From a virus (Duplodnaviria; Caudoviricetes): 64,000 nt of DNA. The notes beneath the pieces were generated by a model that ran no database searches, was not told the DNA's origin, and saw only the letters and a program-made list of their open reading frames with translations. The stretch is taken from IMG/VR virus record IMGVR_UViG_3300005077_000489, positions 147,230-211,229 of that record, one strand, 5' to 3'. The stretch's first letter is position 1. Every line of letters starts with the position of its first letter. Below, one piece after another: positions 40,176-63,567 of the stretch. Both the position numbers and the translations under genes were made by a program.

Positions 40176-40404
40176 ACCACGAAAACTAGAGAAGAATGGG
40201 CGGGCAGTTGGTCTACAACTCAAAAGTGGTATTAAAATTATAGGTGTGCTCAATGATCATTCCACTAATAAGTTAGTTGTAGAAGATTGGCTGGACCAAG
40301 ATTTAGTAAAGGAAGTACACAGAGCTACAATTGTAAGGATTATGGTTCTAATTGATGGAGGTAATAATGACGGAAAACTTAGAGTATACAAAAGAGCAAC
40401 CTAA
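40132..40404 (+). CDS. Putative Sm-fold (Hfq/LSm-like) protein
   Basis: AVGLQLKSGIKIIGVLND...KLVVED...KEVHRATIVRI aligns by eye with Hfq V-x-I-x-L-x-NG-x-x-L-x-G ... VYKHAISTV. Confidence 0.5.
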   Translation: MLEHELDKRITEKNKPRKLEKNGRAVGLQLKSGIKIIGVLNDHSTNKLVVEDWLDQDLVKEVHRATIVRIMVLIDGGNNDGKLRVYKRAT

Positions 40405-41713
40405 ATTACCGGCGGAGCCAAAGAAGAAGATCCGTCTAGTATTCTATGGGGACGCACCCTGCGTTGCTACAGGATTTGGAAAGGTGTCTAGTAATATTTT
40501 ACCTGTATTTCATGAATCAGGTGATTATGTCATATCATGTTTTGGTGTGAACTATATGAATGTACCACATCCATATCCTTTCCAGATTTATGGTATGTTG
40601 CCTAATCCACAAGGTGACCCCTATGGGCGTGAAAAAATCCAACAGATTTTACCGCAGATGGAGTTTGATATTGCTTTCTTTTTGCAAGACTCCTTTATTT
40701 TAACTTTTCTGCCTAATATTATTAATGAGTGCCGGAAACGCGGGCGGAATTTTAGGTCATTAGTCTATTTTCCTATCGACGGCGTGCCGTGGGTAGAATG
40801 GATACAAGCTATGTCTGCTGCCGATAGATGCGTAACTTACACGCAGTATGGTAGGCGGCAGTGTATAAATGCTTACCCGGAGATAGAGCCTAAACTAGAA
40901 GTAATACCGCACGGTATTAGTCTGAGGGAATTCTATCCCCTGTCGCCGGAGGAAGTAGAACAAAAGCGTAAGGTTTACTTTGGTAAACATGCAGATAAAT
41001 TCATCGTTATTAACGTGAATAGGAATCAACAACGAAAAGACCTACCGGCTAGTATGATGGCTTTTAAATTGTTCAAAGCGGATTGTCCTAATAGTGTGCT
41101 ATATTTACATTGTGCTGAAAAAGATGTAGGTTGGGATTTACCTAGAGTTGCTAAGCATTTAGGATTAAAACTTGGAGAAGATGTATTGTTTCCTCCTAAC
41201 TTCAATGTTAATAGTGGTTATCCAGTAGAGATTGTAAATCATCTGTATAATTGTGCAGATGTGTGCATTTCCTCAACCGTTGGCGAAGGCTGGGGTCTAA
41301 GTGCCTCAGAATGCATGGGAACTAGAACACCAGGTATTTTTCCGCAGAACACGTCTCTGACAGAAATCTTTGCGGATGGGAGAGGTTTCCTTGCTCGTAG
41401 CGGAGATACAGAAAATATGAGAATAGTTCTTCCCATGGATAATGAGGTGGTTAGACCACGAACCAATGTGAATGATGTTGCGAAATATCTTAAGCGTCTT
41501 TATGAGGACAAACAGTCGGGAGGTAGGATAGCAAAAAATATTACTGACAAAGCATACAAGTGGGTCGTAGAGAATCTACAATGGGAGAAACACATAGTCC
41601 CCAGATTTGATAGGATTATTAAAGAACTCGTGTATGACTTAACAAGACCGATAGAAGTAATTAATCCTGGTAGAGAGACAAACGAGGATTGGAGACGTGG
41701 GGAATTAATTTAA
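40367..41713 (+). CDS. Glycosyltransferase, GT4 (GT-B)
   Basis: Start moved to ATG 40367 (SD GGAGGT). TGFGKV; NVNRNQQRKDL; YNCADVCISSTVGEGWGLSASE (E-x7-E). Confidence 0.88.
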   Translation: MTENLEYTKEQPKLPAEPKKKIRLVFYGDAPCVATGFGKVSSNILPVFHESGDYVISCFGVNYMNVPHPYPFQIYGMLPNPQGDPYGREKIQQILPQMEFDIAFFLQDSFILTFLPNIINECRKRGRNFRSLVYFPIDGVPWVEWIQAMSAADRCVTYTQYGRRQCINAYPEIEPKLEVIPHGISLREFYPLSPEEVEQKRKVYFGKHADKFIVINVNRNQQRKDLPASMMAFKLFKADCPNSVLYLHCAEKDVGWDLPRVAKHLGLKLGEDVLFPPNFNVNSGYPVEIVNHLYNCADVCISSTVGEGWGLSASECMGTRTPGIFPQNTSLTEIFADGRGFLARSGDTENMRIVLPMDNEVVRPRTNVNDVAKYLKRLYEDKQSGGRIAKNITDKAYKWVVENLQWEKHIVPRFDRIIKELVYDLTRPIEVINPGRETNEDWRRGELI

Positions 41714-41733
41714 ATATAATAAAGAGGTTAGTA

Positions 41734-61869: not shown

Positions 61870-62557
61870 AGATAGAATTCCTAAAATTCTTGTTCCAGTA
61901 AAAGGTCTTCCCTTCATAGAATATATTATAAATGAACTATATGGTATGGGGGTTCGTAATATTTATCTCTCTGCAGGATTTAAATCGCGTGTTCTAGAAG
62001 ATTATATTTATGGAGAAAGACAATTTAGAGAAGATGTGTTGCCTTGGGTAAATTTATATGTTATACCGGAGTTAGAACCTCTAGGTACAGGTGGTGGTAT
62101 ACTAAATGTATTACATAAGTACGGGGTTATACACAGAATAAGTGAACCCTATATTATAACAAATGGAGACACCTTGTTGTCTTTATCCAATGAAGATGAC
62201 TATGATAATTATGAACACTTATATTATAGCGAAGGTGCTCCAGAACTACTACTGGTGGGATGCAGAAGGGATAATGATGGGAGCCACGACAATATAGATT
62301 TACATCCAGACGGTGATGTGCTTGGTTTCAACCGTGAAGAAGGTAATCATTTAGTTAACTGCGGGATGTATATAGTGAGCAGGGCTCTATTTTATAATGA
62401 GACTGTAGTGAGACCCTGCCATCTAGAAAAGGATTTGATTACTCCTCTGTGTGAGAAGGGCATATTTAGTTCTTGTTACGAGATAAGTAAAGATAACTTT
62501 CTGGAAATTGGGTCCCCCGAGGCTTTAAAGCAAGCAGAGAAAAAGATTCGAAGATAA
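61814..62557 (+). CDS. Sugar-1-phosphate nucleotidyltransferase (HddC-like)
   Basis: AIVLCGGLATRL...PKILVPV..PFIEY; EPLGTGGG; NGDT; VNCGMY; LEKD; EIGSPE. Confidence 0.85.
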   Translation: MDAIVLCGGLATRLREITEDRIPKILVPVKGLPFIEYIINELYGMGVRNIYLSAGFKSRVLEDYIYGERQFREDVLPWVNLYVIPELEPLGTGGGILNVLHKYGVIHRISEPYIITNGDTLLSLSNEDDYDNYEHLYYSEGAPELLLVGCRRDNDGSHDNIDLHPDGDVLGFNREEGNHLVNCGMYIVSRALFYNETVVRPCHLEKDLITPLCEKGIFSSCYEISKDNFLEIGSPEALKQAEKKIRR

Positions 62558-62583
62558 TTATTTATAAAGAGAGGGAATAATCT

Positions 62584-63567
62584 ATGATAATTGTATCAGC
62601 ACCGGTACGTGTTTCGTTGTCCTCTATAGACCATGAACCTTTTAGTTCCAGGTTCGGTGGATGTGCCATAAATTTTTGTATAAATAAACGTGTGTATATT
62701 ATTATAAGAAGGAGGAATAAATTAGAGGAGTGTCCTTACCGGGTATCCTATTCTAAGATTGAACTATGTGATAAACGTGAAGAAATAGAGCATTCCCTGG
62801 TTAGAGGAGCATTAGAATTAACCGAGACAGATACTCCTTTGGAGATTATTTATTCTTCCGATGTACCTGCTAAGACTGGGTTGGCTACAAGTAGTGCTAT
62901 GGTGGCAGCATTATTAAAGGGTTTATATCATATGAAATGTCTGGGAATTTCCCAAGAATTATTAGCAGAAAAGACGTATTTGTTAGAGAGACAACTATTA
63001 AAACAGGCTGGTGGTTTTCAAGATGAGTACGCAGTAGTTTATGCTGGTATTAATTATCTGACAGGAAAACCCTTTGAAGTTACAAGGACTCCTATAAGTT
63101 TATCTGAAGACAATATACGATTACTTGAAGAACACATGCTATTAATATATACTGGTAATCGTGGTGAGTCCTCTAATATCCTAACAGAACAATTAAGCAA
63201 CCTGAAAAAGGGGAAGACACTAGAAGAGTGTTTCAAAATAAAGAGACTAGTTACAGAAATATATTCCATTATGTCTGCTAAGGATTTTCATCCCTCGCAT
63301 TTATATGCCCCTGTAAGAGAAGCATGGGAGTACAAGAAACGTTTGGCTAATAATATGACTAATAAATTAATACAAGATATAGAGAATAAAGTAGATAATA
63401 TAGATGCTGGGGCAGGCTTGCGTCTAGTAGGTGGCGGGGGAGGTAGAGGGGTCATGTTAGTTATAACCAGCCCCTCTAACATAGAACAGATAAAGCAGGC
63501 TGTGCATCCTTTAAAAACCCTAAATGTAAAATTTGAATGGGAAGGTGTGAAAGTACATTATATATGA
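62584..63567 (+). CDS. GHMP sugar kinase (HddA-like, divergent)
   Basis: APVRVS...INFCINKRVY; SDVPAKTGLATSSA; GGFQDEY; YTG; GGGGG. Adjacent to an HddC-like gene. Confidence 0.8.
   Translation: MIIVSAPVRVSLSSIDHEPFSSRFGGCAINFCINKRVYIIIRRRNKLEECPYRVSYSKIELCDKREEIEHSLVRGALELTETDTPLEIIYSSDVPAKTGLATSSAMVAALLKGLYHMKCLGISQELLAEKTYLLERQLLKQAGGFQDEYAVVYAGINYLTGKPFEVTRTPISLSEDNIRLLEEHMLLIYTGNRGESSNILTEQLSNLKKGKTLEECFKIKRLVTEIYSIMSAKDFHPSHLYAPVREAWEYKKRLANNMTNKLIQDIENKVDNIDAGAGLRLVGGGGGRGVMLVITSPSNIEQIKQAVHPLKTLNVKFEWEGVKVHYI

Follow-up and report, generated by a model that had tools for sequence, protein, structure and literature searches.

Our analysis has shown that an uncultured jumbo phage carries a block of co-oriented glycan genes. 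Judged from sequence, the block may well be a lineage-conserved, wholly cytoplasmic glycan-decoration module with virion proteins as the likely acceptor, a reading that we hold with about even confidence. The window analyzed is a stretch of 64,000 nucleotides (positions 147,230 to 211,229 of IMG/VR record IMGVR_UViG_3300005077_000489), and the block occupies window positions 40352-63850, with all enzyme classes on the + strand, as are all block genes described below. It contains six glycosyltransferases (two GT4-like, two GT-A and two Glyco_trans_1_2), four SAM methyltransferases, two sulfotransferases on either side of one APS kinase, and a sugar-nucleotide arm of three SDRs, two nucleotidyltransferases and one GHMP sugar kinase. 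Each of these enzymes had been listed in an initial annotation of this DNA, and all were recovered. The co-orientation directly behind replication genes was likewise borne out, the immediate upstream neighbors being clamp, RecA, DnaB, primase, DnaJ and RuvC genes. The same annotation described a phage-autonomous pathway of ~23 kb. The enzyme set is real, but ~5 kb of the block is taken up by genes that are selfish or have nothing to do with glycans, namely those for three homing endonucleases and RNase HII along with conserved unknowns, and the block is cut off at the contig end.

Physical linkage and conservation

The carrier genome is a linear metagenome contig, 86% complete, and terminase is encoded on the same contig as the block. 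A 256-kb IMG/VR relative (UViG_3300005077_000001, hereafter G001; 97% complete) is collinear with it genome-wide and has the block in the corresponding position, flanked by RuvC and PolA; in relatives, PolA and RNR lie beyond the block. The same block was found on Ga0612056_0102, Ga0612055_1106, UViG_3300005077_000001, UViG_3300010413_001187 and SRR7048221_216536; contigs from at least five other samples keep its gene order, with 25-76% identity between the encoded proteins. This arrangement is far beyond chance. The lineage is one of uncultured jumbo phages of ~250 kb, and the block is conserved in it. A metagenomic source, a linear contig and a block at the contig end would also suit an assembly chimera, in which bacterial DNA was joined to a phage contig, or a decaying cargo of inactive remnants. 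However, the collinearity of G001, the recurrence on contigs of other samples, and a composition and GC skew without a break all speak against a chimera. Decay is opposed by the motifs of ST1 and ST2, the P-loop of the APS kinase, the GT-A DxD and the methyltransferase GxG, which are intact in relatives; their retention suggests that the enzymes are not degenerate. We regard a chimera or decayed cargo as extremely improbable and conclude that the block is a genuine part of the phage genome, so that its physical linkage to phage genes, presumed earlier, stands.

Gene content of the block

The first gene, GT4a (40352..41713; start codon uncertain), encodes a GT4-like GT-B glycosyltransferase that matches phrog_2170 (glycosyltransferase) at 1.3e-36 and Pfam Glycos_transf_1 at 24.8 bits, below the Pfam cut-off. 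GT4b (41689..42918), a GT-B enzyme of GT4, is over the cut-off (33 bits), has 58% identity to its L008 homologue and keeps many invariant residues. Neither GT-A enzyme has a Pfam match. The one at 44869..45759 is GT2/GT7C-like (ESM Atlas feature score 0.98, TM 0.73 to GT2/Glyco_transf_7C clusters; 57% identity to the L002 homologue), and the one at 48343..49263 is GT2-like (feature score 0.96, TM 0.60 to GT2; 67% identity to the L002 homologue) with an invariant DxD (D137, D139); its reading frame begins at 48283, but translation probably starts at residue 21. The remaining two are Glyco_trans_1_2 enzymes (PF13524), one of CgeB type at 45756..46760 (45 bits) and its paralogue at 46763..47692 (36.4 bits). 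The initial label for this pair, "Glyco_trans_1_2/exostosin-like", holds in its first half for both, whereas the gene at 45756 reaches only 23.9 bits against Exostosin_GT47, where the cut-off is 33.4.

Among the methyltransferases, the class I SAM enzyme at 47679..48356 (Methyltransf_23/12/25/11) has a GxG motif and acidic residues that are invariant across relatives. A Methyltransf_24-type enzyme (cation-dependent O-MT-like; 49266..49979) matches PF13578 weakly (E=5e-4), and its homologues in L002, L025 and L026 carry PF13578. A further class I SAM enzyme (Methyltransf_11; 53055..53579) has 47% identity to the L002 homologue. The fourth, at 53576..54163, belongs to the TylF family of sugar O-methyltransferases (PF05711, 66.5 bits), with O-methyltransferases 5i10/4cdz and NovP as its best PDB sequence matches.

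We know of no tailed phage for which sulfated glycans have been shown. Neither sulfotransferase matched any GenBank phage, in agreement with the initial remark on this point. ST1 (Sulfotransfer_1; 51002..51757; PF00685, 31.2 bits, cut-off 22) is a PAPS-dependent sulfotransferase with the conserved motifs PKxGT, catalytic His64, R87/S95 and RKGxxGxW; its AF2 model (pLDDT 90) has cytosolic small-molecule SULTs as nearest solved folds. ST2 (Sulfotransfer_2; 52334..53062; PF03567, 38.5 bits), also PAPS-dependent, is encoded by an ORF that opens at 52235, with the true start probably at M34 (52334), and it has the invariant motifs PKxxG and RDP..S. When its AF2 model (pLDDT 84.5) is compared with PDB folds, the first seven ranks go to 2-O- and 6-O-sulfotransferases of heparan sulfate (E 1.7e-7 to 4e-6), whereas the E-values of small-molecule SULTs are weaker by ~1000-fold. 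G001 has no ST2 homologue. Between them lies a CysC-like APS kinase (APS to PAPS; 51769..52314; PF01583, 89.2 bits), whose P-loop and D33/D35/R38 are invariant in relatives. ATP sulfurylase and CysD were not found in the carrier genome or its relatives, so APS must be supplied by the host and the pathway is not phage-autonomous as first described. Homologues of GmhA and Gmd are also absent from the available part of the carrier genome.

The sugar-nucleotide arm begins with an SDR nucleotide-sugar dehydrogenase or dehydratase (54618..55577; Epimerase, 85 bits) whose best PDB match is 6vo6 (1.5e-52), which we take to be C. jejuni Cj1427, a GDP-heptose C4-dehydrogenase. A GDP-L-fucose-synthase-like SDR of 3,5-epimerase/4-reductase type (57816..58805) matches PDB GDP-L-fucose synthases at 1.8e-46 and NCBIfam GDPFucSynFcl at 207 bits, below the cut-off of 500. 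The third SDR (59394..60227; Epimerase, 31.8 bits) is divergent and RmlD/epimerase-like, with two homologues in a relative. Within the block, conservation is highest in the gene at 60256..60804 (76% identity to the L006 homologue), which encodes a cytidylyl/adenylyl-transferase resembling RfaE domain II, TagD and ECT (PF01467; TIGR02199, 74 bits; PDB matches), and it is rearranged in relatives as one unit with an SDR and a DUF5662 protein (58939..59418; PF18907, 104.5 bits). The HddC/ManC-like sugar-1-phosphate nucleotidylyltransferase (61814..62557; PF00483, NTP_transferase) has the 6-deoxy-D-mannoheptose pathway proteins 6jq8/5xhw as best PDB matches (1.7e-16) and scores 70 bits against NCBIfam HddC (cut-off 300). 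The GHMP sugar kinase (HddA/WcbL/fucokinase-like; 62584..63567; PF00288) matches the PDB heptose kinases 3k85 (1.2e-29), 4usk and 4n3o, and scores 79.7 bits against NCBIfam HddA (cut-off 600). The arm fits GDP-heptose and 6-deoxyheptose enzymes best. These sugar identities are tentative, since all of the sugar-nucleotide enzymes lie far below the NCBIfam equivalog cut-offs. A cupin C3/C5 epimerase and GmhB were not found.

Three of the interspersed genes encode homing endonucleases. The HNH-type gene at 42915..44690 (phrog_559, 3e-113; phrog_3339, 5.9e-82) is an insertion and not a glycan enzyme; at its position G001 carries a GDP-mannose 4,6-dehydratase instead. Of two free-standing LAGLIDADG genes (LAGLIDADG_3), that at 49993..51000 lies in an intergenic site occupied by an HNH gene in L002, and that at 57013..57801 (49.4 bits) has no counterpart at the L002 site. 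RNase HII, a replication gene (61201..61869; PF01351, 119.5 bits), lies inside the block in every relative and at the same position in L006, G001 and L025. The unknowns comprise a 148-residue protein (54169..54615) without a Pfam, PHROG, NCBIfam or Atlas match, a conserved 119-residue protein (55786..56145; 39% identity to the L002 homologue; no family match), a conserved, weakly VWA-like protein of phrog_7371 (56277..56987; 57% identity to the L002 homologue) and a small conserved protein (60924..61247; 39% identity to the L006 homologue). The last gene of the contig (63578..63850) is another small conserved unknown with 53% identity to an 87-aa L006 gene. In relatives its homologue is followed 3′ by a GmhA-like SIS gene (SIS_2), and the block goes on with one more SDR and a GT2.

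Proposed pathway and acceptor

No transmembrane-like segment was seen in any real gene of the block, and no flippase, polymerase, exporter or other membrane protein was found in it; this points to cytoplasmic assembly, as initially proposed. Homology suggests that the GHMP kinase, the guanylyltransferase-like NTP transferase and the three SDRs would convert host sugar phosphates to GDP-activated heptose and/or 6-deoxy sugars, together with a GmhA-like isomerase and Gmd, which relatives encode and whose genes here are probably located beyond the end of the contig. A second activated donor would come from the cytidylyltransferase-like enzyme. With neither a lipid carrier nor an export step, the six soluble glycosyltransferases could then assemble an oligo- or polysaccharide on the acceptor itself. 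The sugars of this glycan would be O-methylated by the four SAM methyltransferases, one of them of the TylF sugar O-methyltransferase family, and sulfated by the two sulfotransferases with PAPS made from host APS by the phage kinase. The targets may be the head fibers and the giant tail appendages, possibly at enriched T-x-S-G sites.

Three acceptors had been left open: virion proteins, DNA and the host envelope. We consider the phage's own outer virion proteins or fibers the most likely acceptor, with roughly as much confidence as doubt, because of a glycosyltransferase paralogue in the head module, the place of GT4a homologues in cultured phages, the enrichment of TxSG and the lack of any hydroxymethyl-base enzyme among our findings. 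The paralogue, a third Glyco_trans_1_2 gene (genome 44984-45904; 35% identity to the enzyme at 46763), adjoins a Ser/Thr/Gly-rich fiber-like gene of 1092 aa. The GT4a homologues of S-CBS4 and TJE1 lie in head or packaging modules, either flanked by the portal and capsid genes or immediately ahead of terminase. The initial pointer from an xSG motif to virion proteins gained support, as TxSG occurs 74 times in appendage proteins against 11 expected (z=17) and 39 times in the head block against 6.8 expected. It is not enriched in a 13,616-aa internal protein and is weakly enriched elsewhere, and G001 homologues keep its density although most positions differ. In the 1090-aa head fiber, however, TxSG belongs to a structural unit that is repeated, and in other places it could reflect beta structure instead of being a sequon. 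Also counting against a virion acceptor are the lack of the head-module glycosyltransferase and of ST2 in G001, the small-molecule-SULT-like fold of ST1, and the placement of the block within the replication module with RNase HII embedded, which suits a DNA-directed function as well.

We also considered whether phage DNA might be protected from restriction and CRISPR by chains of heptose or deoxy sugars that the glycosyltransferases attach to a modified base and the methyl- and sulfotransferases tailor. Known phage DNA glycan clusters (T4 alpha/beta-GT; 5mYOX- or ThyS-associated GTs) similarly set soluble GT-A or GT-B enzymes among DNA-metabolism genes, and where a published phage cluster holds both a cytidylyltransferase and a GT-B, 5hmC receives mono- or di-heptose (bioRxiv 10.1101/2023.12.21.572611). 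However, published DNA glycosyltransferases are always paired with an enzyme that provides the hydroxymethyl handle, ThyS or C5-MT/5mYOX (same source). Neither the 86%-complete genome nor the 97%-complete relative has a ThyS-family hydroxymethylase, which the initial annotation had named as a sign favoring DNA, and no C5 DNA methylase was found. A Tet_JBP search gave no match, but its positive control was equally silent. The genome instead has an ordinary N6/N4 DNA methylase, and six glycosyltransferases, four methyltransferases and two sulfotransferases exceed the needs of any known DNA glycan. Lacking a ThyS-type hydroxymethylase and a C5-MT, DNA is an unlikely acceptor. A target in the host, such as LPS core, capsule, S-layer, pili or a cytoplasmic protein, modified during infection to block superinfection or disarm a defense, we rate as unlikely too, if a shade less so. 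Phage glycosyltransferases are known to alter host surface antigens (PMC12619734), heptose is an LPS-core sugar, and the position after replication genes suggests early or mid-infection expression. The absence of membrane steps disfavors the envelope, and an integrase-type lysogeny context was not seen. Seroconversion is typical of temperate phages. Moreover, exclusion alone would hardly explain a 20-gene investment kept across 25-60%-diverged, lytic-looking jumbo phages.

A soluble product, such as a free sulfated, methylated oligosaccharide or a small-molecule glycoside acting as inhibitor, signal or osmolyte inside the cell or after lysis, seems the least probable of these products. Natural-product tailoring typically draws on TylF/NovP-type methyltransferases, GT-B transferases and SULT-like enzymes, and Nod factors, which are sulfated, methylated lipo-chitooligosaccharides, are made by an analogous soluble set. 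On the other hand, the block holds no scaffold-forming enzyme (PKS, NRPS, terpene or acyltransferase), ST2 is nearest to polysaccharide sulfotransferases, and glycosyltransferase paralogues and homologues sit in virion modules.

Comparison with known systems

The closest counterparts in cultured phages are the sets of S-CBS4 and Tetrasphaera phage TJE1, whose GT4a homologues (31-34% identity over ~90% of GT4a length) adjoin a second glycosyltransferase, a SAM methyltransferase, an epimerase and a nucleotidyltransferase. Unlike the block, these sets comprise 3-6 uncharacterized genes without sulfation, amid portal, capsid and terminase genes. The Campylobacter jejuni capsular heptose pathway consists of GmhA, HddA, HddC, Cj1427, Cj1430 and Cj1428 (PMC10680097). 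The best solved relatives of the block's kinase, nucleotidyltransferase and two SDRs are found there or in its Yersinia, Burkholderia and Bacteroides equivalents, and relatives of the block add a SIS-type isomerase. The capsule heptoses of C. jejuni are also O-methylated. To leave the cell, that capsule depends on an ABC system and a lipid anchor, neither of which is present in the phage block.

Mycobacteriophages are tailed phages whose own soluble glycosyltransferases are reported to decorate capsid and tail proteins in the cytoplasm (Freeman et al. 2023, Cell Host Microbe 31:1216, as cited in PMC12619734). Phage-encoded soluble glycosyltransferases are what the block shares with them. The loci studied there reportedly encode 2-4 glycosyltransferases, in some cases plus one O-methyltransferase, and are said to have neither a sugar-nucleotide arm nor sulfation, the acceptors reportedly being the C-termini of capsid and tail-tube subunits.

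In gene content, the block is also similar to the fibril-glycosylation clusters of Megavirinae, such as Moumouvirus australiensis ma457-ma468 and Cotonvirus ORF712-728, in which SAT/APS kinase and sulfotransferase genes have been published and sulfation is only predicted (Notaro et al. 2022, PMC10117803). In both, genes for nucleotide-sugar synthesis occur together with those for several glycosyltransferases, for methyltransferases (among the giant viruses, in Tupanvirus), for an APS-kinase enzyme and for a sulfotransferase, and both are interrupted by unrelated genes. These eukaryotic giant viruses rely on UDP-sugar pathways (Qui2NAc, diNAcBac) and, having a bifunctional SAT/APS kinase, are PAPS-autonomous; in contrast, the phage block has GDP-heptose-like enzymes, a lone APS kinase, sulfotransferases of two unrelated families and four methyltransferases. 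In Megavirinae, the clusters are predicted to decorate virion fibrils, either in the cytoplasm or in the virus factory. If virion proteins are indeed the acceptor, the phage block would resemble both this fibril glycosylation and the virion glycosylation of mycobacteriophages.

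Genomic setting and conservation of the glycan block

Our analyses have shown that the block of glycan genes (window 40352-63850, plus strand) is physically linked to a phage genome. The window is the final 64 kb of a single linear IMG/VR record of 211,229 bp, estimated by CheckV to be 86% complete, and this record (G000) also encodes a large terminase (Terminase_6N). Giant ORFs of 1892, 3141 and 2187 aa lie 5′ of the block, followed by genes for clamp, RecA, DnaB, primase, DnaJ and RuvC, and the block itself shows no break in GC content (0.34-0.42) or in the positive GC skew. 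The initial annotation named the possibility of a bacterial chimera. Comparison of the whole genome with that of a relative, UViG_3300005077_000001 (G001; 256 kb, 97% complete), contradicts this. Collinearity begins with the terminase (48% identity) and capsid (59%) genes and extends over a pair of giant homologues as far as the replication genes, and G001 carries its glycan block at the same place, followed by a PD-(D/E)XK nuclease, an SDR (dehydrogenase/reductase family) and DNA polymerase A. A chimera is thus ruled out.

The giant homologue of G000 is a single ORF of 13,616 aa upstream of the window (G000 74903-115753). Since its 12,315-aa counterpart is present in the 256-kb G001 genome (102050-138997, stretches L015-L016; best segment 48% identity over 3935 aa), this gene is conserved and is no assembly artefact. 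In the early region of G000 (17169-19816, stretch L027), a caspase-family peptidase (Peptidase_C14, 74.6 bits) adjoins an N6/N4 DNA methylase. TnpB/OrfB_IS605-type genes were seen in G000 (365-1480, minus strand) and in a relative (L006:14285-15643), at locations that differ between both phages.

Relatives were sought with ST1, the Sulfotransfer_1 protein encoded at 51002. A word-index homologue search gave only one ST1 relative and an exhaustive HMMER search was needed, which returned 1389 homologues, the closest dozen being 229-254 aa long. On all inspected contigs among the closest homologues, the ST1 gene was located within the same kind of block. These include Ga0612056_0102 (149 kb), where the block is collinear at 29-76% identity, Ga0612055_1106, a 2.7-kb fragment, SRR7048221_216536, which has a compact block with three sulfotransferases and no endonucleases, and the more distant ERR14373510_316267, with five genes in common. 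In scans of IMG/VR, single-sequence queries found nothing and a 15-sequence alignment was too diverse, but an 8-sequence alignment recovered two records with the block, one of them G001. Among 50,697 GenBank phages, no match was found to the block by megablast or to ST1, ST2 (the Sulfotransfer_2 protein at 52235/52334) and one Glyco_trans_1_2 protein by tblastn; the APS kinase (51769) gave weak tblastn matches only. A search of sequencing runs returned one 'subsurface metagenome' run with 5% of words and no RNA run. Predicted promoters and terminators between 40 and 60 kb were no more or less frequent than in shuffled controls and are uninformative on operon structure or timing.

In the 149-kb relative, the GHMP kinase gene is followed by a small ORF, SIS_2, a cytidylyltransferase/DUF5662/SDR trio, a GT2 glycosyltransferase (GT) and a Gmd-like SDR, and then by PolA and RNR. 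The G000 contig ends right in front of the place of the SIS gene, so its block is truncated, and the missing part is predicted to hold GmhA, Gmd, GT2 and PolA genes. Both the block of genes and its conservation are real; its chemistry we infer.

Gene content of the block

All enzyme classes named by the initial annotation were recovered in the block with Pfam, NCBIfam, PHROGs and the ESM Atlas. Two proteins without a Pfam match are GT-A/GT2-like, namely 44869 (Atlas feature score 0.98, TM 0.73) and 48283 (0.96, TM 0.60), and the DxD motif of the latter is invariant among relatives. The TylF-family methyltransferase resembles the O-methyltransferases 5i10/4cdz and NovP. The initial assignment of an exostosin/GT47 (glycosaminoglycan-like) enzyme scored 23.9 bits, below the profile cut-off of 33.4, and Glyco_trans_1_2 was the better and significant match; membership of that family is accordingly rejected. 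Also unsupported is the reading of the 591-aa ORF at 42915-44690 as a Mom-like DNA-acylating fusion, as this ORF is an HNH-type homing endonuclease matching phrog_559 (3e-113), one of the large phage HNH/homing-endonuclease families.

The ORFs at 49993 and 57013 encode LAGLIDADG endonucleases, and RNase HII and six unknowns are scattered among the glycan genes. Homing endonucleases inside the block turn over rapidly. The intergenic site before ST1 holds a LAGLIDADG gene in the window (49993-51000) and an HNH gene in Ga0612056_0102 (L002:4964-5524). Another LAGLIDADG gene occupies window 57013-57801, several extra LAGLIDADG genes are found in G001 (199911, 201865, 212304), and the compact SRR7048221 block has none. 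At the site of the 591-aa HNH endonuclease, G001 carries a GDP-mannose 4,6-dehydratase (196304-198307; L019:16304-18307) whose match of 379 bits falls in two stretches, split by an intein-like LAGLIDADG domain.

RNase HII (window 61201-61869) is embedded in the block of all relatives examined (L006, G001 and L025 of SRR7048221_216536) and has no obvious part in glycan synthesis. In relatives, the RNase HII and NTP transferase genes flank a gene whose 271-306-aa product (L006:3085-3900, G001 214366-215286) is paralogous to the large terminase in its N-terminal, ATPase half (32-33% identity); this gene is missing from that site in the window. The genes for DUF5662, an SDR and the cytidylyltransferase relocate as a unit between relatives (window 58939-60804, L006:7899-10004). 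The cytidylyltransferase is the most conserved block protein (76% identity), and a possible role for DUF5662 is that of an as yet unrecognised enzyme in the cytidylyltransferase/SDR branch.

Sulfate activation and transfer

The PAPS/APS-binding and catalytic residues of ST1, ST2 and the APS kinase are retained and are invariant across homologues. ST1 matches Sulfotransfer_1 (PF00685) at 31.2 bits against a Pfam gathering score of 22. Across 15 homologues, there is little or no variation at P10/K11/G13/T14 (the PKxGT loop), H64 and R87/S95. Its AF2 model (pLDDT 90) aligns with PAP-bound SULTs at TM 0.62-0.65. The modeled fold is cytosolic-SULT-like, which confirms a sulfotransferase fold and does not tell the substrate class. 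ST2 matches Sulfotransfer_2 (PF03567) at 38.5 bits (cut-off 22) with invariant PKxxG and RDP..S motifs. The top seven fold matches of its model (pLDDT 84.5) are heparan sulfate 2-O-/6-O-sulfotransferases, well before small-molecule SULTs. Based on profile, motifs and fold, ST2 is a candidate carbohydrate sulfotransferase that is predicted to act on sugar hydroxyls.

The APS kinase (CysC, PF01583) scores 89.2 bits against a cut-off of 21.1, with an invariant GxSGSGKT P-loop and D33/D35/R38. No match to ATP sulfurylase (Sat, PF01747) or CysD (PF01507) was found in G000, G001 or another relative genome, G002, in searches that included positive controls. The phage would thus require APS from its host, and the description of the pathway as phage-autonomous proved too strong, as its sulfate activation is incomplete.

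Sugar donors

Several genes suggest that the donors are heptoses and/or 6-deoxy sugars in GDP-activated form. Among solved structures, the GHMP kinase is closest to the D-glycero-D-manno-heptose kinases 3k85 (1.2e-29), WcbL and HddA, and the NTP transferase to 6jq8/5xhw (HddC) from the 6-deoxy-D-mannoheptose pathway. The SDR at 54618 has as its top PDB match 6vo6 (1.5e-52), which we take to be Cj1427, the GDP-heptose C4-dehydrogenase of C. jejuni. A SIS_2 (GmhA-like) gene lies 3′ of the GHMP kinase in Ga0612056_0102 and Ga0612055_1106, just past the end of the G000 contig, and G001 encodes a true GDP-mannose 4,6-dehydratase (379 bits). Taken together, these relationships suggest an arm similar to the C. 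jejuni capsule pathway (PMC10680097).

We treat the identities of the sugars as tentative because all equivalog cut-offs were missed by a wide margin (NCBIfam HddA, 79.7 bits vs 600; HddC, 70 vs 300). The SDR at 57816 is closest in the PDB to GDP-L-fucose synthases (1.8e-46) and falls below the Fcl equivalog NF047922 (207 bits vs 500); it is a member of the Fcl subfamily of SDRs, and its substrate may be a heptose. The product of the cytidylyltransferase-like gene could be ADP-heptose, CDP-glycerol or CDP-ethanolamine. No SIS homologue was found in G000 by tblastn with the relative's protein, no SIS_2 in G001 or G002, and no GmhB was recognised.

Acceptor of the glycan

Virion proteins, phage DNA and the host envelope were considered as acceptors, and we favor the virion, giving it about an even chance based on three indirect lines: the position of a GT gene, the context of GT homologues and the enrichment of a short motif. 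The head module encodes one more Glyco_trans_1_2 paralogue, the third, which shares 35% identity with 46763 and abuts a gene for a 1092-aa Ser/Thr/Gly-rich fibre-like protein; this GT is missing from G001. In the cultured phages S-CBS4 and TJE1, homologues of GT4a (40352) are accompanied by another GT, together with methyltransferase, epimerase and nucleotidyltransferase genes, and these sets are placed either between the portal and capsid genes or immediately upstream of the terminase. The T-x-S-G (TxSG) motif is 6-7-fold enriched (z=13-17) in head-block and appendage proteins, with no enrichment in the 13,616-aa protein and a weak one elsewhere. Its density is kept in G001 homologues, although most positions differ. 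The appendage homologues at window 5309-10987 (the 1892-aa protein, whose N terminus is TxSG-rich) and G001 158770-163467 have 17 and 12 sites, respectively, with about one expected, and only four sites align, in an alignment at an unreliable 30% identity. This fits selection for the number of sites rather than for fixed structural positions. A caveat for the sequon reading is the 1090-aa head fibre (G000 55353-58625; L009:14354-17626), where TxSG is part of a repeated unit, a 14-33-residue repeat present in 23 copies and containing T[TI]SGDI(V/I)xQIPSL. The same protein has a discoidin (F5/8 type C) domain.

If DNA were the acceptor, an enzyme that makes a hydroxymethyl-pyrimidine handle would be expected, since published phage DNA glycosyltransferases, one set of which installs heptose, are always coupled to such enzymes (bioRxiv 10.1101/2023.12.21.572611). 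In those systems the handle is made by ThyS or by C5-MT plus 5mYOX. In contrast, no thymidylate-synthase-family hydroxymethylase, the kind of base-modifying enzyme that the initial annotation said would favor DNA, and no C5 DNA methylase was found in G000, the 97%-complete G001 or a 66-kb relative. Tet_JBP had no match in these three either, in a search whose positive control was silent, and the N6/N4 DNA methylase of G000 is of ordinary type. A host-envelope glycan would need to cross the membrane, and no block gene could move it. As first noted, the block has no flippase, polymerase or exporter. None of its real genes encodes a TM-like segment, and Pfam families for a polyprenyl-phosphate initiating GT, flippase, polymerase or transporter are absent from it. 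The block thus differs from Wzx/Wzy- or ABC-dependent surface polysaccharide loci, whose membrane components it lacks.

Within the virion reading, a more specific picture is a glycosaminoglycan-like sulfated, O-methylated, heptose/deoxy-sugar coat, built in the bacterial cytoplasm on the TxSG sites of head fibres and giant tail appendages. We regard this full picture as possible and on balance rather unlikely.

Significance and comparison with known systems

The block represents a conserved enzyme set with intact motifs, open to recombinant testing without phage culture. It comprises two sulfotransferase families, an APS kinase for PAPS, four methyltransferases, six or seven GTs and a GDP-heptose-like arm, and its enzymes are candidate tools for sulfated-glycan production. 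If the full picture of a coat on TxSG sites is true, bacteriophages would have their first example of a virion with sulfated glycoproteins, and TxSG would be the first acceptor motif of a sequon-like kind for O-glycosylation by phages. With a negatively charged, methylated coat on the fibres, adsorption would be affected, as would shielding against immune recognition and against proteases of the host or the environment, and the interaction of jumbo phages with polyanionic matrices.

That giant viruses encode glycan pathways is established, as is simple virion glycosylation in mycobacteriophages, a tailed-phage precedent. In agreement with the initial annotation, we found no literature account in which a sulfated glycan of a tailed phage was characterised, and no phage-made glycan is known to have been demonstrated to carry sulfate. 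Lone phage sulfotransferases have been described as genes with 'function unclear' (PMC10580990). The nearest published analogue is the fibril-glycosylation cluster of the Megavirinae, in which a sulfotransferase accompanies a SAT/APS kinase in Moumouvirus australiensis and Cotonvirus; sulfation there is described as 'needing experimental validation' (PMC10117803). In both the phage block and the Megavirinae clusters, sulfation is predicted from the genes.
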